A DNA stretch of 64,000 nt from Candidatus Doudnabacteria bacterium (GTDB lineage: Bacteria; Patescibacteriota; Doudnabacteria; UBA920), in NCBI GenBank assembly GCA_963768175.1, contig CAVYGQ010000001.1, positions 100,481 through 164,480 of the forward strand. Direction: 5' to 3'. Below, one piece after another: positions 3,886 to 64,000 of the stretch; positions within the stretch are counted from its first letter, which is position 1, and each line of letters opens with the position of its first letter. The notes beneath the pieces were generated by a model that made no database searches, had not been told where the DNA came from, and saw nothing but the letters and a program-made list of their open reading frames with translations. The translations under genes and the position numbers were made by a program.

Positions 3886-5182
3886 TCACCAAACTTTTTA
3901 ACTCGCCGTTGTCCAAAAGCAAAACGTTTTGGCCGGCGGAGTCTATATAAAACTTTTTTACATCAGTCCCTTGGTAAAGCTGGTACTGGTTTTGGTTATC
4001 GCGCGTGTCCAGTTCTATGGCCATAAGCTTTTCGCCTTGGAAATAGAAAGCGTTGCCGATGGAATTTAAAATTTTAGGGTTGGTCAAAGTTTCGCTGCTG
4101 CGCGTGACAAAGTTTAAATTTTCGCCTAACGGGTCATAATAATCCAATTCGCCGGAATGAATTACGGATAAAAGGGAATCGCTGGGGTTAAAACTGAAGC
4201 CGGAAATATTGTCAGCAAGCTGCTGCATGCCGGAACTTACTGAGTAAAGCTTCGTATCTGCCAGCAGAAAAATTTCTTTTTCAAAAGTTACAAACAATAC
4301 GCCAAAGTTAAAGGCAGGCAGGGTATCGGCCAAGTCCTGGCTTACGGAAAAGGGCGCCTGGCTTACGAAGAGAGCGTAATTTTGGCCTTTTTGCTGGACA
4401 AAATACAGCGCTCCACCCTCGGGGGAAAAAGTTTTGACCCCGGAAAATAGGACAATTTTGGTTTTGGTTGCCGGGTTTATTGAATATAAAACATTGTTGC
4501 TTAAGGCGTAAAGCCCTCCGTCATCCCCGAATTGCAACTCAGGCAGTGTGCCAAATAGACTGCTTATGTCGTAAATTTCTCCCACGTTTTGGTTGAAAAT
4601 CAGCAAAACCGGGGAAGAGGTAGCGGCTTGGGAATTAGTAAGGGCAAAAATTTTTCCGGCTCCATCCTCGGCTAAAATTTTGTTTACGTTTTTTGGCAGG
4701 CTATAGGTTTGCGCGGCATCGGGATTATCTAAAACGGAAGTTACTAAGCCGCCTTTGGTCAAATAAATAAAATTTTTATCGTGGCTGTAAAAGTCCAAAA
4801 CTCCCTGGACCAGATTTTGAACCGAAGGATTTTTTAAAAATAAATAAATGTTGCCGAAAGAGGGGTTGGCCCAAGTTACCTGCCCGGCTTCAATAGTCAG
4901 CCTTTTGGTCCAATCTGAGTAGCCGGGTTTTTTTAAGCTGACCGTGTAACTGCCGGGCAAAAGGAAGGTCAGGTCCCCCTGGCTTTGGCGTTTTTGTTGG
5001 CCGTCCAAAAAGATCGCCGCGTCTTGGGGGTTGCTGCGCACCGCTAAAATTCCGGTCTGAACAAAACTCTTGCTGTCAAAATCAAAGCCGACGCCTTTTA
5101 CGTAAAGCACAATTATCGGAGCGGCTATGAGGAAAAAAATAAAACCTATAGCGATAATAAAATAACGGCTTTTTCTGGTCAT
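3878..5182 (-). CDS. Membrane-anchored PEGA-domain protein with beta-rich extracellular region
   Basis: It has an N-terminal TM helix and a PEGA-like segment (ILAVRSNPQDAAIFLDGQ...PGSYTVSLKKPGYSDW). No catalytic motifs were seen. Confidence 0.5.
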   Translation of the reverse strand: MTRKSRYFIIAIGFIFFLIAAPIIVLYVKGVGFDFDSKSFVQTGILAVRSNPQDAAIFLDGQQKRQSQGDLTFLLPGSYTVSLKKPGYSDWTKRLTIEAGQVTWANPSFGNIYLFLKNPSVQNLVQGVLDFYSHDKNFIYLTKGGLVTSVLDNPDAAQTYSLPKNVNKILAEDGAGKIFALTNSQAATSSPVLLIFNQNVGEIYDISSLFGTLPELQFGDDGGLYALSNNVLYSINPATKTKIVLFSGVKTFSPEGGALYFVQQKGQNYALFVSQAPFSVSQDLADTLPAFNFGVLFVTFEKEIFLLADTKLYSVSSGMQQLADNISGFSFNPSDSLLSVIHSGELDYYDPLGENLNFVTRSSETLTNPKILNSIGNAFYFQGEKLMAIELDTRDNQNQYQLYQGTDVKKFYIDSAGQNVLLLDNGELKSLVIR

Positions 5183-5252
5183 GGTTACTATATTTTAGCG
5201 TAATTTTGCCGTTGTTACAATTGGTTAGGTTTGGTATAATAAGAGCTGTTTG

Positions 5253-21085: not shown

Positions 21086-21706
21086 TTATGCGAACTGTTG
21101 CAACTGTCCTAAAATGGCCTGTTCCAGCTGAACAGTATCATAATGGCGTTGAGGCTTGATGTGTAAAATATTTAACTCTGAGGCTCTCAAAGCCCCGTCT
21201 AAAAAATCATCTCTTAATTTTCTATTGAAATAATTATGGGTATAATCATCCAGTTCAATAACCAAAAGTGGCGACAAATAAACTTTGTCAAAGATTACAA
21301 AATCTACTGTCTTTTTGTTTATCCTGTTAAAGTTGCTGTAAGTGGAATTTGTGCCGTATCTTTCCAGTCCGCCTTGGACTTCAATGATTCGGGATAAGGC
21401 AACCTGTGGCATAATAAAATACCTGTCCTTGATTATTTCCTGTAGCACTCCGAAAAACTTGTATTCGGTTTGGGTCATCAGGTATCGCTTTTTTCTGAAT
21501 GGATAAATTTTATCGTCTTTTTTTACTTCCTGAATTTTTGTATTGCCAGCATTACTAGGCGGTAAAGGTATCTCGGAATAATTTTGCTTTGAGCTTTTTA
21601 TGATGTAACTGGCAAGAATGATTATGATTATTAAACCAAATAAAAAATCCATAAATTTGCTTTTAGAAACACAAAGCCCCGGTCCAGCCGGGCTTTTACA
21701 CCCCAT
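21086..21706 (-). CDS. DUF2726-domain protein (NERD/restriction-endonuclease-like fold), membrane-anchored
   Basis: An N-terminal TM helix precedes the DUF2726 signature (TVDFVIFDKVYLSPLLVIELDDYTH ... RDDFLDGAL...LNILHIK). Confidence 0.55.
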   Translation of the reverse strand: MGCKSPAGPGLCVSKSKFMDFLFGLIIIIILASYIIKSSKQNYSEIPLPPSNAGNTKIQEVKKDDKIYPFRKKRYLMTQTEYKFFGVLQEIIKDRYFIMPQVALSRIIEVQGGLERYGTNSTYSNFNRINKKTVDFVIFDKVYLSPLLVIELDDYTHNYFNRKLRDDFLDGALRASELNILHIKPQRHYDTVQLEQAILGQLQQFA

Positions 21707-51438: not shown

Positions 51439-52458
51439 ATGAAGATATTAATTACCGGCGGAGCTGGATTTATCGGTTCCAACTTTGCGCATTATTGGAT
51501 AAAGCATTATCCGGACGGCCAAATTGTGGTTCTGGATAAGTTGACTTATGCCGGGAATCTAGAGAATTTATCTGATGTTATCAATCGCATAGAGTTCGTC
51601 AAAGGAGATATTTGCGATGAAGCGGTTGTCGGACGGGTAATGAAAGGCGTGGATGTGGTGGTGCATTTTGCGGCGGAAACTCATGTTGACAGGTCAATCC
51701 AAAATCCTGATGTTTTTGTCCGGACTAATGTTTTAGGCACGCAAGTTTTGCTTGAGGCGGCAAAAAAATATCAGGTAAAAAGATTTCATCACGTCTCCAC
51801 CGACGAAGTTTTCGGTAGCCTGCCGCTGGGCTCAAAAGAAAAGTGGAATGAGCAAACGCCTTACAACCCACGCAGCCCTTACTCGGCCAGTAAAGCCGCA
51901 AGTGACCATTTAGTCCGCGCTTATTATCATACCTACGGCTTGCCGATAACTATCAGCAACTGTGCCAATAACCTTGGCCCTTATATGTTTCCGGAAAAAT
52001 TAATTCCTCTTGCAATTACCAATCTTTTGGAAGGCAAAAAGGTGCCGATTTACAAACCAGGCAACCAAGTCCGCGAATGGCTGTATGTGGAAGACCATTG
52101 CAGCGGCATTGATGCGATTTTGGAAAAAGGGAAAATCGGTGAAACGTATTTTATCGGGCCCGACAATCCCGAGTTTACAAATTTGGAAGTTATCAGGAAA
52201 CTTTTGGTGCTTATGAAAGCGGGCGATGATATGCTGGAAATGGTCAGCGACCGCCCGGGGCACGACCAAAAATATGCGATGGATCATAGTAAAATATCAC
52301 GCGAACTTGGCTGGCGACCAAAGTACGGGCTGGATGATTCTTTAAAAATGCTTGTTGATTGGTATACGAAAAATCAAGACTGGTGGAAAGAGGTTAAAAG
52401 CGGGGAATATCAAAAGTATTACGAACGGCAATATAAAGGGAAAACAAATAACCGATAA
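51439..52458 (+). CDS. rmlB: dTDP-glucose 4,6-dehydratase
   Basis: The motifs ILITGGAGFIGSN and YSASKAASDHLVRAY (YxxxK) and an SDR-extended fold are present. Confidence 0.95.
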   Translation: MKILITGGAGFIGSNFAHYWIKHYPDGQIVVLDKLTYAGNLENLSDVINRIEFVKGDICDEAVVGRVMKGVDVVVHFAAETHVDRSIQNPDVFVRTNVLGTQVLLEAAKKYQVKRFHHVSTDEVFGSLPLGSKEKWNEQTPYNPRSPYSASKAASDHLVRAYYHTYGLPITISNCANNLGPYMFPEKLIPLAITNLLEGKKVPIYKPGNQVREWLYVEDHCSGIDAILEKGKIGETYFIGPDNPEFTNLEVIRKLLVLMKAGDDMLEMVSDRPGHDQKYAMDHSKISRELGWRPKYGLDDSLKMLVDWYTKNQDWWKEVKSGEYQKYYERQYKGKTNNR

Positions 52459-52521
52459 TTGATAATTAATAACTCTGGAAACTGTAAGTAGTTATCGGTT
52501 ATAAATTAATAGTTATAAGTT

Positions 52522-53376
52522 ATGGGCACTATTTTAATTCTAGGGTCGCAAGGCTTGCTAGGCGGGGAGTTTAAAAGGACTTTTTCGCGCGCTTTGGGTT
52601 GGGACAGAAAAGAAATCGATATTAGCGAGGCGGAAAGTTTGGAAAACAAAATTTTAGCGCTTGGGCAAAAGCCCGCCGCCATTATTAATTGCGCGGCATA
52701 TAATAACGTTGACGGCGCGGAAAAAGAAAAAGACAAAGCTTTTTTAATAAATGCCACGGCTGTGGGCAATTTGGCCAAGGTGTGCGGTAAATTGGATATT
52801 TTATTGGTGCATTTTTCGACTAATTACGTGTTTGACGGCGAAAAAGGCGAGTACGCGGAAATCGACCAGCCTAACCCCATATCCGTATATGGGCAGTCTA
52901 AATATGAAGGGGAAAAATTGCTGGAGGCAAACTGCTTGAGATACTATTTGATTCGGACTTCGGTTTTGTTTGGCCAGGAGGCGGAAAGCCCGTATGCGAA
53001 AAAGAGTTTTATAGAAGTTATGTTGGGTTTATCAGAAAAAACTGCTACAATTAAGGCAGTAAATGACGAAACCAACAGCCTGACCTATGCAGCCGATTTG
53101 GCCAAAGCCGTAGAGGATTTAATTGTTAAAAAGTTTTCTTACGGCATTTACCATATAATTAACAGTGGGCAAGCGTCTTGGTATGATTTTGCCAGGGAAA
53201 TTTTTAGCATCAGCGGCAAAAAAATTAATTTGGTTCCGGTAAAGTCTACGGAATTTTTGCGCCAAGCCAAGCGGCCGAAAAAAGCCGTCTTGCTGAATAC
53301 CAAACTGCCGCCGCTTCGGAGCTGGCAGGAAGCGCTGAAAGAATACTTGAATCAGGAATCAAGAAGTATGAATTAG
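52522..53376 (+). CDS. rmlD: dTDP-4-dehydrorhamnose reductase
   Basis: An ILGSQGLLGGE Rossmann motif is present, and the length and YxxxK are consistent with RmlD. Confidence 0.88.
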   Translation: MGTILILGSQGLLGGEFKRTFSRALGWDRKEIDISEAESLENKILALGQKPAAIINCAAYNNVDGAEKEKDKAFLINATAVGNLAKVCGKLDILLVHFSTNYVFDGEKGEYAEIDQPNPISVYGQSKYEGEKLLEANCLRYYLIRTSVLFGQEAESPYAKKSFIEVMLGLSEKTATIKAVNDETNSLTYAADLAKAVEDLIVKKFSYGIYHIINSGQASWYDFAREIFSISGKKINLVPVKSTEFLRQAKRPKKAVLLNTKLPPLRSWQEALKEYLNQESRSMN

Positions 53377-53381
53377 GGTCT

Positions 53382-53440
53382 CCTAATTCCTAATTCCTAA
53401 TTCCTAATTCCTAATTCCTAATTCCTAATTCCTAATTCCT
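53382..53440 (+). repeat. Heptanucleotide microsatellite (CCTAATT)x8 plus a partial unit, ending 5 nt before the rmlA start codon
   Basis: It is a perfect tandem repeat in the rmlD-rmlA intergenic spacer and replaces any recognisable RBS. Confidence 0.9.
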
Positions 53441-53444
53441 TTTC

Positions 53445-54179
53445 ATGAAAGGCATTATTCTCTCCGGCGGCAGCGGCACGCGCCTGCATCCTTTAACCAA
53501 AGTTACCAGTAAACAGCTTTTGCCGGTTTACAATAAACCGATGATTTTGTATCCGCTGGAAACCCTGCTTAAGGCCGGCATCAAAGACATTTTGATAATT
53601 ATCGCGCCGGACCACCCGGGTGACTATATGAAACTGTTGGGCTCAGGCCGCGAGTTTGGCGCCCGTTTTTCTTACGAAATTCAAGATAAGCCGGAAGGCC
53701 TGGCCCAGGCTTTTATTATTGCCGAAGATTATATTGGAAGCGATAACGTTTGCATGATTTTAGGCGACAATATTTTTGAAGACGATTTTTCCAAAACTAT
53801 CAAAAATTTCAAAAAAGGCGGGCACGTTTTTGCCAAAAAGGTGACCGATCCCCAGCGGTTCGGCGTTGTTAAATTCAACGAAAATATGGACGCGGTTAAA
53901 ATTGAAGAAAAGCCCAAGGAGTTTTTGTCCGATTACGCAATTACCGGGCTTTATCTTTACGACAATCGCGTAGTACAAGCGGCAAAATCGGTTAGGCCAT
54001 CGGCGCGGGGCGAATTGGAAATTACGGAATTGCACAACTGGTATTTAAAAAGGAATGAACTGAAAGTAGACATAGTCAAAGGGCAGTGGATAGACGCCGG
54101 CACTTTTGAATCGCTGCACCGCGCCGGCGAGCTTATGCGCCGGAAGGCATTAAATAAACCGACACCAATCCACGAATGA
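53445..54179 (+). CDS. rmlA: Glucose-1-phosphate thymidylyltransferase
   Basis: The motif MKGIILSGGSGTRLHPLT is present, with a short (244 aa) nucleotidyltransferase fold. Confidence 0.9.
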   Translation: MKGIILSGGSGTRLHPLTKVTSKQLLPVYNKPMILYPLETLLKAGIKDILIIIAPDHPGDYMKLLGSGREFGARFSYEIQDKPEGLAQAFIIAEDYIGSDNVCMILGDNIFEDDFSKTIKNFKKGGHVFAKKVTDPQRFGVVKFNENMDAVKIEEKPKEFLSDYAITGLYLYDNRVVQAAKSVRPSARGELEITELHNWYLKRNELKVDIVKGQWIDAGTFESLHRAGELMRRKALNKPTPIHE

Positions 54180-56436: not shown

Positions 56437-57756
56437 ATGACCCAAGATTCTTCAATCAAAAAATATCCCCATACAACCGCTGAAGTGGCGCAAATGTTAG
56501 GTATGCACCCGACCGGCCAGAATTTGCCCATGGGCAGTTTTGCTGTTTCCGATTTGCCGGTGGCAGACTTGCCGGTGGCCGAGGATGTTGTCTCCGGCCA
56601 AAAGCAGGCGGAGCCGGCAGCTTACGCGCCTGAGTTATCCGAAAATATGGGCAATGAAAAAGCCGCTTTACCTGACGAAAGCGAACTTGAGTCAATTCAG
56701 GAAAGGGCGGCTGACCAGCCTGTTTATGTTAAAGTGGGCAAAGCGCTTTTGCCTTACGCCGCTATTTTTTTGATCGGGATATTCTTGTATTATTTCTTTT
56801 TTACCAAAGTGGATTTTACCACGGTGTTTAAATTTTCTCCCAAAGCCGCCACCCCGCAAATAACGGAAATTCAGAAATTGGAACAACAGGACGCGGCTTC
56901 ATACCAAAGTTGGGTTGCCAGTTACTATTATGATGTCAGCGACCCCAACATTTTAGACCCCGAAGCCGACAATTCCGGCAACGGCTTATCTAATTTTCAA
57001 AAGTACCTTTTGAATTTAAACCCCAAATCTTACGATACTTTGGGCTTGGGGCAAGCCGACAGCCAGAGTATTGCCATGGGCATTAATCCGCTTACAGGCG
57101 GCCCTGAAACGGATGCCCAAAAAGCCATTGTCAGCAAATATATAGACATGGAAGTGGTGATGAACCGCTTGACCTTGTCTAATATGCAAAACCCTCCGGA
57201 AGTGGCCGGAGCCAATACCTCTGACGGCAACTCCGCGGAAAGCCAAAAGTTTTCCATCAGGGGCGGGACGTCCGCAAACCAGATTAACAGCAGCCAGGTG
57301 GACATTAATACCGGCGTGCCCGGTCTTTTGGAAATTCCCGATTTAAAAATAAAGGTCCCGATTATTTGGAGCACGGATCCTAAAAATTTCGACAATGATT
57401 TACAAATTGGCGTAGTCCATTATCCGAGCACGGCTTTGCCCGGGGAAATCGGCACCGCATACATAGCCGGCCACAGCAGCAATTATGTTTGGGCCAAAGG
57501 CAGTTATAACCAGATTTTTTCCAAGTTAGGGGATTTGGCCCTTAATACCTCGTTCAAAATTACGGTTACGCAACAAAGCGGCAAAACCGCGGTGCTTGAT
57601 TATGTTGTCACCAAAATCCAGCAATACAGCCCCACCGATCAGGCGCAATTTGAGAGCTCGGATAAATCCGTTGTCGCCCTTTCCACCTGCTGGCCGGTTG
57701 GCAGCACGGCAAAAAGATTGGTTGTGTTTGGACAGCTGACGCAAGTAGTAAAATAA
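56437..57756 (+). CDS. Sortase-family transpeptidase with long N-terminal extension
   Basis: A TM helix is followed by the sortase His (YIAGHSSNY), the catalytic Cys (VVALSTCWP) and the Arg (KRLVVFG). Confidence 0.75.
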   Translation: MTQDSSIKKYPHTTAEVAQMLGMHPTGQNLPMGSFAVSDLPVADLPVAEDVVSGQKQAEPAAYAPELSENMGNEKAALPDESELESIQERAADQPVYVKVGKALLPYAAIFLIGIFLYYFFFTKVDFTTVFKFSPKAATPQITEIQKLEQQDAASYQSWVASYYYDVSDPNILDPEADNSGNGLSNFQKYLLNLNPKSYDTLGLGQADSQSIAMGINPLTGGPETDAQKAIVSKYIDMEVVMNRLTLSNMQNPPEVAGANTSDGNSAESQKFSIRGGTSANQINSSQVDINTGVPGLLEIPDLKIKVPIIWSTDPKNFDNDLQIGVVHYPSTALPGEIGTAYIAGHSSNYVWAKGSYNQIFSKLGDLALNTSFKITVTQQSGKTAVLDYVVTKIQQYSPTDQAQFESSDKSVVALSTCWPVGSTAKRLVVFGQLTQVVK

Positions 57757-57913
57757 TCTTAAATTTTACTGAGTAGACAGTGCCTATCATCGCAGTAATT
57801 TACGATGGTAGGCGTTACTCTACTCGGGCTTCGGCCGCGAGTTGCATCCCGATTTGTAAATCGGGGTGAAGTTCGGCCGATGTGCCGAGATTACAGTTCG
57901 GATCGGAGGATCC

Positions 57914-58702
57914 ATGAAAATCGCTCGTTTGAATGTAGGCCAGATTTTGGCTGTGACTATGGCAGTGCTTTTGGCACTCGCCGGCGTCCAGCCCGTTGTC
58001 GCTGCCGAACCGGCCGCGGCTTCTGATCCGGCAACCCTGACTAGGGAACGGGTCAACAAGGTCGGCCGCGGACGTTACGTAGCGGCTGATGATTTCCGGG
58101 TTAACTCGACCATAAGTTTCTCGCAGCCGGACTACAAGTTCGAGAGCCGGCTGCCGCAGGGCTTCGGTCGCGCTACCGCTAAGCATCTGGGCGTCGCTGG
58201 GAAGAGGTTCTGGAATGAGTATCCTGGCATCGGTGCGGCGCTAGTCGTAATGGCACCGGAAACGGTCCTCATTTACGACACGGTCTCCCGTGTTGCGCTG
58301 TATGTAACCGGTTGCCATCGGGAAGGGAAGAAAGGCGGACTCAACCGTATTAAGGAAGAGAATCCTCCACAACCCGAACTAACTTCCGTACCTTCTGTGG
58401 TTCCTCCCACAGAACTGAAAGGAGAACTGAAGGGTTCGCAGCCGACCCCAACTCCTACGCCTACACCGGTGCCAACGCCGATGTTGCGTGTCGACCACAA
58501 CACGACGAACGTGCACGTTGATAACAGCACGCGCATCGTCAACGTGACCGAACACAAGGCGAAATGCGGCCGAGGCTGCAAGGTAGCGATATTCATCGCC
58601 ATCGGCGCGGCCGGAGCTGCCGGAGCTGCTCTCGCGATCGGGCACAAAGGTGGCACTACCACTTGTGCCTCCTGCACAGGAGGCCCAGGACCCAGGCCAT
58701 AA
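57914..58702 (+). CDS. GC-rich secreted/anchored protein (signal peptide, PT-repeat linker, C-terminal hydrophobic segment)
   Basis: The gene is ~60% GC. It has a signal peptide (MKIARLNVGQILAVTMAVLLALAGVQPVVAAEP), a PTPTPTPTPVPTP linker and a C-terminal VAIFIAIGAAGAAGAALAIG segment. Confidence 0.45.
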   Translation: MKIARLNVGQILAVTMAVLLALAGVQPVVAAEPAAASDPATLTRERVNKVGRGRYVAADDFRVNSTISFSQPDYKFESRLPQGFGRATAKHLGVAGKRFWNEYPGIGAALVVMAPETVLIYDTVSRVALYVTGCHREGKKGGLNRIKEENPPQPELTSVPSVVPPTELKGELKGSQPTPTPTPTPVPTPMLRVDHNTTNVHVDNSTRIVNVTEHKAKCGRGCKVAIFIAIGAAGAAGAALAIGHKGGTTTCASCTGGPGPRP

Positions 58703-58823: not shown

Positions 58824-58852
58824 TTGACAAAACGTCAATTTGATACTATAAT
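58824..58852 (+). promoter_or_regulatory. Canonical sigma70-like promoter of the giant surface protein gene
   Basis: TTGACA (58824-58829), a 17-bp spacer, then TATAAT (58847-58852). The gene starts ~70 bp downstream. Confidence 0.65.
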
Positions 58853-58919: not shown

Positions 58920-61900
58920 ATGAGCATCAAAACATTCTCTAAATTTAGTATGGGCTTAAAGGTCATCGCTATTTTAGGTATTACCTCTATGGCTGTTTTG
59001 GCGTTAGTCCCTAGGGAGGCTGGCGTTTTGCTGGCAGATAATAATGCTAATTGCACTACTTCCACCACGCCGACGTTTAACCCGTATCCGGTTTCAAATA
59101 ATCCCGGTAACTGTCAGGACTACCCGTTCATCGCTTCCAAAGTAATACACAGCGATGGTTCGCAAACCGGTTTTAGTACTGGTTCAATACAAGCCCAACC
59201 CGGTGATAAAGTTGAAGTCCAATTATACATAGATAACGGAGCCGCTTTAGGTTCTCCTGCTCTAACAAATATTCAATTAACAACCAGTGCCGTTCTAAGC
59301 GCAGGTTCTTCCCATTCCGTTTCGGCTTCCGTTACAGCCAGCAATGCCAATAACTCTTTAAGCGGTAGCTTAAACATTTTAACCCCAAACAGTTCCACTT
59401 TGCAGGTTGATCCTTTAACCGGGCAATGGTACCAGCAAACTACCTCCATGGGCAATTTGGGCAATATTGTTAACACTACGACCCATTTGCCCGACCAGGC
59501 CGCTTGTTTCCCTTATGTCCGATTTATTAATATGGTTTTTGATGTTGTCGGGCAACAGGTAACCCAATCCGTTACCTTAACCGCCACGCCAAACCCTGTT
59601 TGTATTGGAGCTTTAACTACCTATTCAATAACTTCTACTGTAAATGGCCCGATTGTTTGGACCTCAACTTTTAACGGCCAACCGACCGGTGAGAACAATT
59701 CTTATCCCGGACAGAATTTAACCCCGCAAAACGGAGTGTATGTTTGGAGCGCCGTGGGTGATTATTGGGGCGATCATTTCCACAGCGGCAATCCCTTGGC
59801 CGATGTCGGTACTTGGACTAAAACGGCGACCATTAATGGCGTGCAGAGCAATACCGTAACTTTTCAGGTTAAGGATTGTACGCCCCCCGTACAAAAATCC
59901 GCCAGCATCACCGCCACTTTAGGCAGCGCCAATAAAGCTCAGTGTTTATATAACGGCAATGTGACTTGGCAGAGCAGTGGTTATGATGCCGTGGCGGTTT
60001 ACGTCCAATCGGTTGGCGCCAACGACTATTCGCTGGTGGCTGCCAACCTTCAGGGCAGTACCAATATTCCCTGGTTCATTCCGGGCAGAAATTACGAGTT
60101 TACCCTTTGGACGGTCAGTGTTTCCAACGGCGTATACACCAAAGTAAGCCAGATTGCCGATCCGGCGATTGTCAACGTGCCTGCTTTGGATTGTACCGTG
60201 CCGGTGACTTTAACCTGCAGTGCTTCTCCTATTTTAGCCAATATCAACGATCCAGTAACTTTTGGTGCTTTAGGCGGTTCCGGTCCATACTCTTGGACTA
60301 ATGGCGAAAATCCCGCCACTGGTAGTGGCCAGAGTTTTACCACCAGTTTTTCTTCAGCCGGTAACAAAACCGTGACTGTCCACAGCCAAGACGGCCAGAT
60401 TGCCTATTGCAGTGTGACTATAAAACAGCCGGTTCAGAAACCCGCGACTTTAAATTGTGCTACCCCGACCATCCAAGCCAATATTGATGATACCGTAACC
60501 TTTGGTGCTAATGGCGGCACCGCTCCTTATTCCTGGAGTAATGGTGGCAATCCTTCCAACGGTAGCGGCCAGAATTTTTCTACCAAGTTTTCTTCTTCCG
60601 GCAACAAAACGGTTACCGTCTCTAGTTCCGACGGTCAGACTGCCTATTGCAGTGTGACTATAAATCCGCCCCCCGTAAACAAATCCGCCAGCATCACCGC
60701 CACTTTAGGCAGCGCCAATAAAGCTCAGTGTTTATATAACGGCAATGTGACTTGGCAGAGCAGTGGTTATGATGCCGTGGCGGTTTACGTCCAATCGGTT
60801 GGCGCCAACGACTATTCGCTGGTGGCTGCCAACCTTCAGGGCAGTACCAATATTCCCTGGTTCATTCCGGGCAGAAATTACGAGTTTACCCTTTGGACGG
60901 TCAGTGTTTCCAACGGCGTATACACCAAAGTAAGCCAGATTGCCGATCCGGCGATTGTCAACGTGCCTGCTTTGGATTGTACCGTGCCGGTGACTTTAAC
61001 CTGCAGTGCTTCCCCTAATCCGGTTGACATTAACAATCCGGTTATCTTTACCGCCACTGGCGGCGCCGCTCCTTATAATTGGAGTAACGGCGGCTATCCT
61101 TCCACCGGCAGCGGCCAGAGCTTTTCCACTACTTATTCCACAGCCGGCACCAAGACAGCTACGGTTTCCAGTTCCGACGGCCAGACCGCTAACTGCAGCG
61201 TGGTTGTCAAGCCGACAGTACAGCAAAATGCCCAGTTAACTTTGACTAAACAGGTCAAGAATCTGGGTCCCAGCCAGACCACCCTTTATGATAAAAGCGT
61301 GCTGGCCGAGCAAGGCGATGCCGTCCGCTATCTAATAACCGTAACCAATATCAGCTCCGTAACCGCCAACAATGTTTCAGTGACGGATACTCAAGGATCA
61401 AGTGCCGGTAATGTTACGACTTCCGGGTCAAACGGCAGTGCTGTTCCAATTTCTGGCAGCTTACAAAACGGTTTAAACTTCGGCTCTTTAGCCGCCGGAA
61501 GTTCGGTTTATATTACCTATACTTTACCGGTAAATGTCAACAGCGGCAGCATTGACAATACGGCAACGGTCAGCGCTTCCAATGCCAACAGTGCCAGCGA
61601 TTCGGCCGTTGTTACTATTACAGCAATTCCTATTTGCCAGGCCGACAGCAATTTTGCCTTAAACGCTTCTACTCCGGTCAAAAACGGCTCAAGCTATTCG
61701 GTTACTTTAACTTGGTCTTCCACAGGGAATAATCAAATTAAAATCACCCAAATTAATCCGGGCGCCGGTTATGAAAATACTATAGCCATCGGCAGTTCGA
61801 GTGGCAGTCAAACTATTAACGGCCTACTTCCGGGCAGCACTTACATCTTTAAGATGTATGATGTTTCTTGCAGCCAATTTTTAACCTCCGTCCAGGTTGT

Positions 61901-63338
61901 TACTCCTTCTAATCCGGGTCAGCTGACTTGTTCTGTTCAAAGTTCAACCATCAATTCGGGCTCTGCGGCTAACTTTACCGCCCAGGGCGGCATGGCTCCT
62001 TATAACTGGAGCGGTGATGGCAGTCCGTCAAGCGGAAGCGGTTCTTCTTATAATCCGGTTTACACCAACACTACTACGTCTTCCATAAATCACAGTGTTT
62101 CGGTTACAAGTTCCGACGGCCAGACCGCTAACTGCAGCGTGGTTGTTAACGGCCAGCAGCAAAATAACGGTAACATCAATAATAATTGCGTCAACAATTC
62201 CTGCAACGACACGACTAATAATACGGATAACTCTGTCAATAACAGCAATAATCCAATCACAACCAACACCGACAATTCCATTAATAATAGCTATAATAAC
62301 ACCAGCTCAATAAATGACAGCTACAACAATTATACCTATAACAACACGGTATATATTAGCAGCAACGGCAATGTGGTGCCGGCTAATCAGTTCAGCCAGC
62401 TCTCTATAACCAAAAGCGTCAGGGATGTTTATAACAATTATAACAGTTACAACAACTATTATAACGGAAGCTTCAGCAACAGCGTCAGCGCCAATAACGG
62501 CGATACCGTGCAGTTCCAAATTGTGGTCAGTAACAGCGGCTCGGCGACCGCCAACAACGTGCGCGTTACCGACATCCTGCCTTCGGGATTGAATTTGGTT
62601 TACGGCAGCGTAACGGTTAACGGGAGCCAGGCTTCCGACAACAATCTTTCCAACGGCATGTATTTGGGCAGCTTAAGCTCCAGCCAGTCGGAAACCATAA
62701 CCTTTTCGGCTACGGTTTCGGGATACGGCTCTTCCAGTAGCATCCAAAATACGGCTACAGCCAGTTCAGATAATGCCGGTTCGGTTCAGGCCAGCGCTTG
62801 GGTATTTGTTAACGGCAACGGCAATGTTTTGGGCGGCAACGTTAATTTAACCTACAGCAAGAGCGCGCTTAACAACACCAAAAATCAAGACGCCACCGCG
62901 GTAGCCGCATCCAGGGAAGACTTTATTACCTACACTTTGACCGCTTCCAACAGCGGCAACACGCCAGCTACCAATTTCATTATTACCGATGATTTATCCC
63001 AGGTTTTGCCTTATGCCGACATGACAGACTTCGGCGGCGGCAGCCTAAACGGCAATGTGATTACTTTCCCCGGGATAACCGTGCCGGCCAACGGTAGCGT
63101 CACCAGGAGCTTTGAGGTTAGGGTTAAGTATTCGCTCTCTAGTAATTTAAGCTATGTTATGACTAACACTTACGGCAATACCGTGACCATTAGGATTAAC
63201 ACCCCGCAAGTCTTAGGCGCCTTTACCGCTCCCAAGACCGGCGCGGACACCAATGCCTTTGTCTTTGCCGGAATCTTAACGTCCGGACTTGCGATCTACA
63301 AAAAGAAAAATTTGCTGATGAAATTGATATTTAATTAA
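58920..63338 (+). CDS. Giant (1472 aa) repeat-rich cell-surface protein with candidate sortase sorting signal
   Basis: The N-terminus has a signal/TM segment. Several ~90-aa Ig-like modules are present (TFGA.GG.APYSW.NG.NP..GSGQ.F.T.FSS.G.KTVTV.S.DGQ.A.CSV.), with three DUF11-like domains and an Asn-rich low-complexity tract. The C-terminus reads TAPKTG, then a hydrophobic stretch, then KKKN. Confidence 0.8.
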   Translation: MSIKTFSKFSMGLKVIAILGITSMAVLALVPREAGVLLADNNANCTTSTTPTFNPYPVSNNPGNCQDYPFIASKVIHSDGSQTGFSTGSIQAQPGDKVEVQLYIDNGAALGSPALTNIQLTTSAVLSAGSSHSVSASVTASNANNSLSGSLNILTPNSSTLQVDPLTGQWYQQTTSMGNLGNIVNTTTHLPDQAACFPYVRFINMVFDVVGQQVTQSVTLTATPNPVCIGALTTYSITSTVNGPIVWTSTFNGQPTGENNSYPGQNLTPQNGVYVWSAVGDYWGDHFHSGNPLADVGTWTKTATINGVQSNTVTFQVKDCTPPVQKSASITATLGSANKAQCLYNGNVTWQSSGYDAVAVYVQSVGANDYSLVAANLQGSTNIPWFIPGRNYEFTLWTVSVSNGVYTKVSQIADPAIVNVPALDCTVPVTLTCSASPILANINDPVTFGALGGSGPYSWTNGENPATGSGQSFTTSFSSAGNKTVTVHSQDGQIAYCSVTIKQPVQKPATLNCATPTIQANIDDTVTFGANGGTAPYSWSNGGNPSNGSGQNFSTKFSSSGNKTVTVSSSDGQTAYCSVTINPPPVNKSASITATLGSANKAQCLYNGNVTWQSSGYDAVAVYVQSVGANDYSLVAANLQGSTNIPWFIPGRNYEFTLWTVSVSNGVYTKVSQIADPAIVNVPALDCTVPVTLTCSASPNPVDINNPVIFTATGGAAPYNWSNGGYPSTGSGQSFSTTYSTAGTKTATVSSSDGQTANCSVVVKPTVQQNAQLTLTKQVKNLGPSQTTLYDKSVLAEQGDAVRYLITVTNISSVTANNVSVTDTQGSSAGNVTTSGSNGSAVPISGSLQNGLNFGSLAAGSSVYITYTLPVNVNSGSIDNTATVSASNANSASDSAVVTITAIPICQADSNFALNASTPVKNGSSYSVTLTWSSTGNNQIKITQINPGAGYENTIAIGSSSGSQTINGLLPGSTYIFKMYDVSCSQFLTSVQVVTPSNPGQLTCSVQSSTINSGSAANFTAQGGMAPYNWSGDGSPSSGSGSSYNPVYTNTTTSSINHSVSVTSSDGQTANCSVVVNGQQQNNGNINNNCVNNSCNDTTNNTDNSVNNSNNPITTNTDNSINNSYNNTSSINDSYNNYTYNNTVYISSNGNVVPANQFSQLSITKSVRDVYNNYNSYNNYYNGSFSNSVSANNGDTVQFQIVVSNSGSATANNVRVTDILPSGLNLVYGSVTVNGSQASDNNLSNGMYLGSLSSSQSETITFSATVSGYGSSSSIQNTATASSDNAGSVQASAWVFVNGNGNVLGGNVNLTYSKSALNNTKNQDATAVAASREDFITYTLTASNSGNTPATNFIITDDLSQVLPYADMTDFGGGSLNGNVITFPGITVPANGSVTRSFEVRVKYSLSSNLSYVMTNTYGNTVTIRINTPQVLGAFTAPKTGADTNAFVFAGILTSGLAIYKKKNLLMKLIFN
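59895..60226 (+). repeat. 332-bp internal direct repeat, copy 1 (identical copy at 60681-61012)
   Basis: By eye the two stretches are nucleotide-identical, with a period of 786 bp (262 aa). Confidence 0.85.
60681..61012 (+). repeat. 332-bp internal direct repeat, copy 2
   Basis: See copy 1. Confidence 0.85.
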
Positions 63339-63589
63339 GACGCGAATTTTGCGCGTAAGTAGGGGCGGCCATTGGCCGCCCCTAACTTTGTTTTACTGAT
63401 TATTTCGGGCAGGAATTACATTGTTTGTGGATATGTTACAATAGCTTAGAGTTTTAGCCGTATTTAAGACTACTTGCAATAAAGGATAAAAGTGCTATTA
63501 TAAATTAAACGGCGTAATAATAAACAAAAACAAACAGCCCAAAAGAGCTGTTTTATTTGTAATATTGGAAAAATCAGAAAATCAGATAA

Positions 63590-64000
<411 letters not shown>

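Follow-up and report, generated by a model that had tools for sequence, protein, structure and literature searches.

Periscope Proteins are bacterial surface proteins of variable length, such as SasG/Aap, Rib/alpha C, Sgo_0707 and Esp, in which high DNA identity among the stalk domains leads to intragenic recombination and thereby to length variation (PMC8201768). CLIPPER domains are isopeptide-bonded stalk domains of fibrillar adhesins (PMC12617251). In Gracilibacteria (BD1-5), a hypervariable gene contains perfect, microsatellite-like repeats of 9 nt (tripeptide PTD) that vary by slippage, and these repeats disrupted short-read assembly (PMC6851277).

Here we describe a gene for a putative surface protein in a 64-kb stretch of DNA, hereafter the window, from a Candidatus Doudnabacteria bacterium. 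Patescibacteria are ultra-small, presumably host-dependent, and thought to live attached to other cells; to our knowledge, their attachment proteins are almost unknown.

As in the Periscope Proteins, the gene product is a surface protein with an export signal and a predicted wall anchor, its stalk is made of small beta-sandwich domains, and DNA-identical domain copies are present that would act as a recombination substrate, with units gained or lost in frame; one relative (locus L080) has a perfect tandem array of three copies (3 × 321 nt). Unlike the Periscope Proteins, the window gene has no tandem array of identical domains but two separated copies, identical over 332 of 786 nt, and its stalk mixes four module types instead of forming a homogeneous array; its host belongs to an uncultured Patescibacteria lineage and its sorting motif is APKTG. 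With the CLIPPER (DUF11, PF01345) fibrillar adhesins it shares a long chain that includes a signal peptide, a stalk and a sorting signal at the C-terminus (PMC12617251), whereas the piece repeated here is an Fn3-like module and not a CLIPPER domain. The likeness to Gram-positive LPXTG proteins lies in the N-terminal signal peptide, in the C-terminal order of motif, hydrophobic segment and basic tail, and in a sortase gene two genes upstream that is syntenic across the family; the differences are the motif, (T/I/V)APKTGA, and the sortase, which is long (439 aa) with an extended N-terminal region. Finally, the Gracilibacteria gene is likewise a CPR gene for a surface or extracellular protein with perfect repeats and expected length variation (PMC6851277), but the repeat in the window is a whole domain of 332 nt.

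Results

Architecture of the surface-protein gene

The features that define the gene are given below in window coordinates.

56437..57756, + strand, sortase gene (Pfam Sortase, E 1e-20), whose enzyme presumably anchors the surface protein
58824..58852, + strand, promoter-like site, perfect TTGACA-17-TATAAT, 68 nt 5' of the ATG (consensus match only)
58920..63338, + strand, surface-protein gene, 1472 aa (ORF and translation)
59898..60194, + strand, A1 module, aa 327-425, predicted beta-sandwich of Fn3-like type, one Cys close to either end
60201..60446, + strand, B1 module, PKD / BiPBP_C-like
60447..60686, + strand, B2 module
60684..60980, + strand, A2 module, aa 589-687, identical to A1
60987..61232, + strand, B3 module, 63% nucleotide identity to B1 past the exact tract
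61632..61928, + strand, A' module, diverged A-type, 26% identical to A1/A2 and 77% to the P0004 ortholog
63228..63335, + strand, C-terminal sorting signal, APKTGADT, a hydrophobic segment and a KKK tail
63360..63384, + strand, terminator-like GC-rich hairpin and then a T run, directly after the stop codon (consensus match only)

The module map was drawn with HMMs built on the surface protein's own modules. From the N-terminus it reads signal peptide, N domain, X, A1, B1, B2, A2, B3, CLIPPER, A' and B4, and after B4 come an Asn-rich linker, two CLIPPER domains and the APKTG sorting signal. The N-terminus is a hydrophobic signal-like segment, and the C-terminus reads FTAPKTGADT, then a hydrophobic span and KKK. 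The conserved N domain (aa 46-204) was modelled as all-beta; a fold search with it returned no significant PDB match and no recognisable adhesive fold. Three domains of the protein exceed the curated cut-offs for CLIPPER/DUF11, with Pfam PF01345 scoring 87 bits (cut-off 24.6) over three stretches and NCBIfam TIGR01451 scoring 74.5 bits (cut-off 24). Modules similar to PKD/BiPBP_C were detected by both Pfam and NCBIfam (BiPBP_C, 46 bits). The LPXTG-anchor model TIGR01167 stays just below its cut-off (15.3 against 15.9 bits), the motif being APKTG and not LPXTG, and A-P-x-T-G-A is invariant in nine family members. The C-proximal A' appears, by sequence comparison, to be the stable, orthologous copy of the A type.

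Taken at face value, these features suggest that the product is a sortase-anchored, CLIPPER/DUF11-containing, fibrillar-adhesin-like protein. A preliminary description of this DNA had placed the repeats within a surface-protein gene, and the signal peptide, the CLIPPER/DUF11 domains, the APKTG sorting signal and the neighbouring sortase all support that assignment.

A 332-nt tract present twice without a difference

Base-by-base comparison at an offset of 786 showed that 59895-60226 equals 60681-61012, a maximal exact match of 332 nt. The following elements are involved.

59895..60226, + strand, exact repeat copy 1 (332 nt): linker, whole A1, next linker, first 7 codons of B1
60227..60680, + strand, spacer separating copies 1 and 2: remainder of B1, complete B2, linker
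60681..61012, + strand, exact repeat copy 2 (332 nt): linker, whole A2, next linker, first 7 codons of B3

The perfect 332-bp repeats at 59895-61012 thus agree exactly with the preliminary description; the "786 bp apart" given there holds as the start-to-start spacing (786 nt, or 262 codons), and the intervening gap is 454 nt. Both copies are direct repeats in the same reading frame of the ORF 58920-63338 (+), and they encode the same 110 residues. A repeat search returned the same pair as 59881-60180 / 60667-60966 with 99% identity. Similarity also covers the 14 nt before the exact tract (from 59881), apart from two mismatched positions, 59892 and 59894; past the 3' end the identity drops to the level of old paralogs, not to random. 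The repeated tract respects domain boundaries, as it consists of a PPV(Q/N)K-type linker, the A module, a linker and seven B codons (LTCSASP).

There are only two identical copies, which are non-adjacent and have two non-identical B modules between them. Of the 786-nt period, 332 nt (42%) are identical, and the remainder is 63-71% identical or unrelated. The 64-kb window has no repeats of 60 nt or longer other than the 332-nt pair and this gene's diverged B modules. The repeat overlaps no tRNA, no Rfam family and no large ORF on the opposite strand. An exact match of 332 nt cannot arise by chance, and with 0 differences at 332 sites the divergence of the pair is below ~0.9% (95% bound, our own calculation).

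The repeated module is Fn3-like in its predicted fold

An AlphaFold2 model of the A module, computed from an alignment of 18 sequences of modules from the family, had a mean pLDDT of 95.7. Nearly all top matches of this model in a Foldseek search of the PDB were Fn3 domains (TM 0.45-0.64, E about 1e-3 to 6e-3, probability 1.00), and the predicted model is a seven-strand beta-sandwich that can be superposed on Fn3 structures. No Pfam family at all scored above threshold for the A module; among the Fn3 families the best was PF24946 (Fn3_Dep-1_4th), with 17.9 bits against a cut-off of 27. Because the Fn3 Pfam families stay below threshold, we call the A module Fn3-like in its modelled fold alone.

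Age and origin of the second copy

The modules that flank the exact tract are far more diverged than the tract itself. Right after it, B1 and B3 share 63% nucleotide identity and 44% at third codon positions, flanking paralogous modules are in general 63-71% identical, and B3 resembles B1 (63%) no more than it resembles B2 (68%), with third codon positions near saturation. The full identity within 332 nt and the abrupt drop outside it therefore point to one recent copy or conversion event, and not to an old unit. An old duplication of an [A-B] unit is rejected on the same values (B3 63% to B1 against 68% to B2, third positions near saturation). A simple tandem duplication of 786 nt as a single-step origin is also rejected, because the whole period would then be identical and not only 332 nt of it.

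Our reading is that both copies are probably real and that they stem from a single, very recent, intragenic and non-allelic copying event in the variable stalk of this adhesin-like protein. Such an event would be discrete, recent and non-reciprocal. It may have inserted a second A copy between B2 and B3, or gene conversion may have overwritten an older, diverged A2. The event would have ended in short pre-existing similarity, its left end in the PPV(Q/N)K linker and its right end in the start of a B module; ends at these places would therefore keep whole folded domains and the frame. The exact tract reaches within 14 nt of the left homology limit, and this closeness is a mild argument for insertion over conversion, tilting our judgement slightly towards the former. 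The best A-module match elsewhere is 37%, and the ancestral architecture is visible in no relative.

Relatives of the surface protein

The identical protein (P0001) occurs once in a collection of 5.8 billion proteins, on a 949-kb contig, and forms a cluster of one member; the closest relatives after it share the termini only. Among species-representative genomes, the conserved C-terminal domain identified 25 true family loci, all of them in Patescibacteria MAGs and most labelled Candidatus Doudnabacteria. Relatives from this genome scan are at most 77% identical in the C-terminal domain. The neighbourhood is conserved in the order rmlA - orf327 - CAP-domain gene (opposite strand) - sortase - adhesin, and the sortase lies upstream of the surface-protein ortholog at 18 of the 25 related loci. 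It also lies upstream of the surface-protein gene in L079 and L080.

The middle of the protein is rebuilt in each lineage while the termini are conserved; the orthologs have 0-6 A-type modules, and no two architectures in the family coincide. A copies are more alike within a gene than across genomes, both in the window gene (100% vs 37%) and in L004 (89% vs 45%), and also in L001 (80% vs 64%). An exact-match search detected independent intragenic repeats in several relatives.

L004, exact repeat of 263 nt, offset 300, two adjacent A modules
L005, exact repeat of 173 nt, offset 297, A
L007, exact repeat of 119 nt, offset 255, B
L080, exact repeat of 631 nt, that is three perfect tandem copies of 321 nt, offset 321, X

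In addition, L079 has a five-unit array with a period of 789 nt and three-module units that are 72-98% identical. Comparable copying thus seems to recur across the gene family, and the different module array in every ortholog would arise because the same copying process recurs through it.

Four of the 25 relatives' contigs end inside the surface-protein gene, as is to be expected when short-read assemblers meet such repeats. JGI metagenome contigs scanned with an exact 36-mer for the A-module variant of the window gave 0 matches, and a protein-guided metagenome scan for the A variant gave 174 pattern matches, none of which was confirmed. The domain-number variation proposed in the preliminary description was seen across the family, where A modules number 0-6, all architectures differ and other members have exact repeats of their own; no conspecific contig or protein was present in the collections searched, and the differences seen are between species only.

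Discussion

Possible consequences for the length of the stalk

The two copies would be usable for recombination because they are identical. As they stand now, they would serve as substrate for homologous recombination, single-strand annealing or replication slippage, and each of these routes would drop or add an in-frame A-B-B unit of 786 nt, altering the length and composition of the stalk. Deletion would yield N-X-A-B3-..., without one A, B1 and B2, that is with the spacer and one A copy lost; expansion would bring in one further A-B1-B2. Computed sequences show that removal of one 786-nt unit leaves an open frame of 1210 aa and addition of one gives an open frame of 1734 aa. Judged from the sequence, copy-number variation in the window gene is plausible.

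The preliminary description had expected "RecA-dependent" expansion and contraction. The expansion and contraction fit with the in-frame loss or gain, which keeps the ORF open; the naming of RecA is too specific, as RecA-independent deletion is documented (PMC4627823). In Deinococcus, deletion between 438-bp direct repeats occurs at about 6.5e-4 and is RecA-independent (PMC4627823), and for E. coli and B. subtilis both RecA-dependent routes and proximity-dependent RecA-independent routes have been described (PMC4627823, discussion). Slippage during replication, or template switching, would serve just as well here. A scan of the 64-kb window, ~7% of the genome, for RecA Walker motifs gave no match.

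Is the assembled order the true one?

The assembled order X-A-B1-B2-A-B3 is the minimal once-through path of an assembly graph in which A would be a collapsed node and B1-B2 a loop, so by our own reasoning a short-read assembler would give this order whatever the true number of units. The real gene may accordingly be conceived as a perfect tandem array of 786 nt with at least three A-B1-B2 units that was under-assembled. Relatives do have multi-unit arrays (5 × 789 nt in L079 and the perfect 3 × 321 nt in L080), and the contig breaks within the gene at 4 of 25 related loci mark it as a locus that is hard to assemble. However, the 949-kb contig is nearly a whole genome for this group, which points to long-read data or a carefully curated assembly, and both would bridge the 1.1-kb structure, and the sequence itself shows no sign of collapse. 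We consider such hidden units improbable. The caution about collapse in the preliminary description is still valid because the assembled order equals the once-through path irrespective of the number of units, and for annotation the gene length in the assembly should be treated as a minimum until confirmed by long reads. Short-read MAGs of the Doudnabacteria-like group often break or truncate this gene, as in the 4 of 25 relatives that end within it.

The opposite error, in which the second copy is a spurious duplication or a strain chimera and the true gene has one A, seems very unlikely to us. Local mis-joins are possible in repetitive genes of metagenome assemblies, but here the duplication is in frame, its edges fall at linkers and domain starts, and the 1472-aa ORF with its downstream domains is intact; moreover, the junction into B3, a distinct old module, is seamless, and comparable exact whole-module repeats are present in the independent assemblies of L004, L005 and L080. 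Diversity-generating retroelements and other targeted-mutagenesis systems are common in Patescibacteria, and near-identical direct repeats together with a surface protein in a CPR genome would fit loosely with a template/variable repeat pair. The copies in the window, however, are exact, without adenine-specific mismatches, and both are coding in one frame of one gene; the repeated piece encodes a complete mid-protein domain of Fn3-like fold, not a C-terminal C-type-lectin fold, and among the ten neighbouring genes scanned 0 of 10 is a reverse transcriptase and no Rfam element lies there. Exact coding copies and the absence of a reverse transcriptase among the ten neighbours effectively refute the pair as TR/VR of a diversity-generating retroelement, and we assign a negligible chance to this or any other targeted-mutagenesis system.

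Meaning for the Doudnabacteria-like lineage

With a recent copying event as the preferred origin, we regard the feature as real and ordinary: a fibrillar adhesin of Periscope-like kind, from a lineage that has been little studied, in which one domain was recently duplicated. That identical intragenic repeats lead to length variation is a textbook mechanism; the value of the observation is that a known mechanism is extended to a new lineage, and the principle itself is not new.

The sortase and the giant surface protein form a conserved, syntenic pair in which the termini of the surface protein are conserved and the stalk is rebuilt per lineage. Because the pair is conserved and syntenic, with conserved termini and a stalk rebuilt in every lineage, the surface protein is a reasonable candidate for a host-contact protein, and also for a convenient marker of strain-level variation.

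A bolder and rather speculative view, to which we give less credence than to a single copying event, is that the locus in Doudnabacteria-like Patescibacteria is a dedicated, hyper-evolving module-shuffling locus and that stalks differ between cells, tuning host-cell attachment or recognition. If so, whole domains of the Fn3-like, X and PKD-like types would undergo constant copying, conversion and deletion, the 332-nt repeat would show one moment of this process, and the population may hold alleles with 1, 2, 3 or more A-B-B units.

Repeats and assembly of the adhesin gene in relatives

L080, a related locus from a JGI metagenome that lies outside the set of 25 related loci used below, carries the 321-nt X module of the adhesin stalk three times in tandem and perfectly identical (4297-5248 of that locus; gene coordinates 1297-2248), which yields an exact match of 631 nt at an offset of 321. 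This triplet is a true Periscope-type array, as in the variable-length bacterial surface proteins with near-identical stalk domains, and it is found within the same gene family as the adhesin of the window. When the 25 related loci were compared, the contig ended inside the orthologous adhesin gene in four of them (L003, L015, L016 and L018), and interrupted adhesin frames were seen in three others (L007, L014 and L025). The adhesin gene is a systematic weak point of assembly in Patescibacteria MAGs.

The adhesin gene and its neighborhood

Features around the sortase and adhesin genes
51439-54179, dTDP-rhamnose-type sugar nucleotide genes (RmlB-like dehydratase, RmlD-like reductase, RmlA-like transferase), to one side of the sortase and adhesin genes
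57866-58702, + strand, 278-aa ORF with a GTG start, between the sortase and adhesin genes
58824-58852, sigma-70 promoter-like site upstream of the adhesin gene
59055-59531, conserved N-terminal domain of the surface protein (aa 46-204)
63360-63384, GC-rich terminator-like hairpin of 11 bp, directly 3' of the adhesin gene
63650-64000, epimerase-like gene on the opposite side of the sortase and adhesin genes, continuing past the window end

The N-terminal domain contains three invariant Cys residues and was confidently modeled as an all-beta structure (core pLDDT >90), for which a fold search of the PDB gave no significant match (best E 0.013, TM <=0.29). We presume that this domain is the functional tip of the surface protein. 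The promoter-like site agrees with the consensus at 12/12 positions and, like the hairpin, is a sequence match only; with these signals, the adhesin gene looks like its own, strongly expressed transcription unit.

The 278-aa ORF has a GC content of 58% vs 44% for the window, and no homolog of it was found at any of the 25 related loci. Its product has a C-terminal TM segment and a 'C..C.GGPG.PRP' tail, which together resemble the tail of the same-position gene product in L080 (E 0.012). The ORF possibly encodes a partner protein that is anchored in the membrane and evolves rapidly. In relatives, too, RmlA-like and epimerase genes adjoin the adhesin gene, and the rhamnose-type and epimerase gene neighbors suggest that the adhesin may be linked with cell-wall glycopolymer synthesis.

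Other elements in the window

At 63570-63656, in the intergenic region 5' of the epimerase-like ORF, short units of 8-9 nt are repeated in tandem (AAATCAGAT; CAATCCGA, about 5 copies). Elsewhere, the minus strand at 21690-21800 matches the LOOT RNA family (RF03000; 70.3 bits vs a gathering score of 46.4), shortly upstream of ORF 21086-21706, which is on the same strand.
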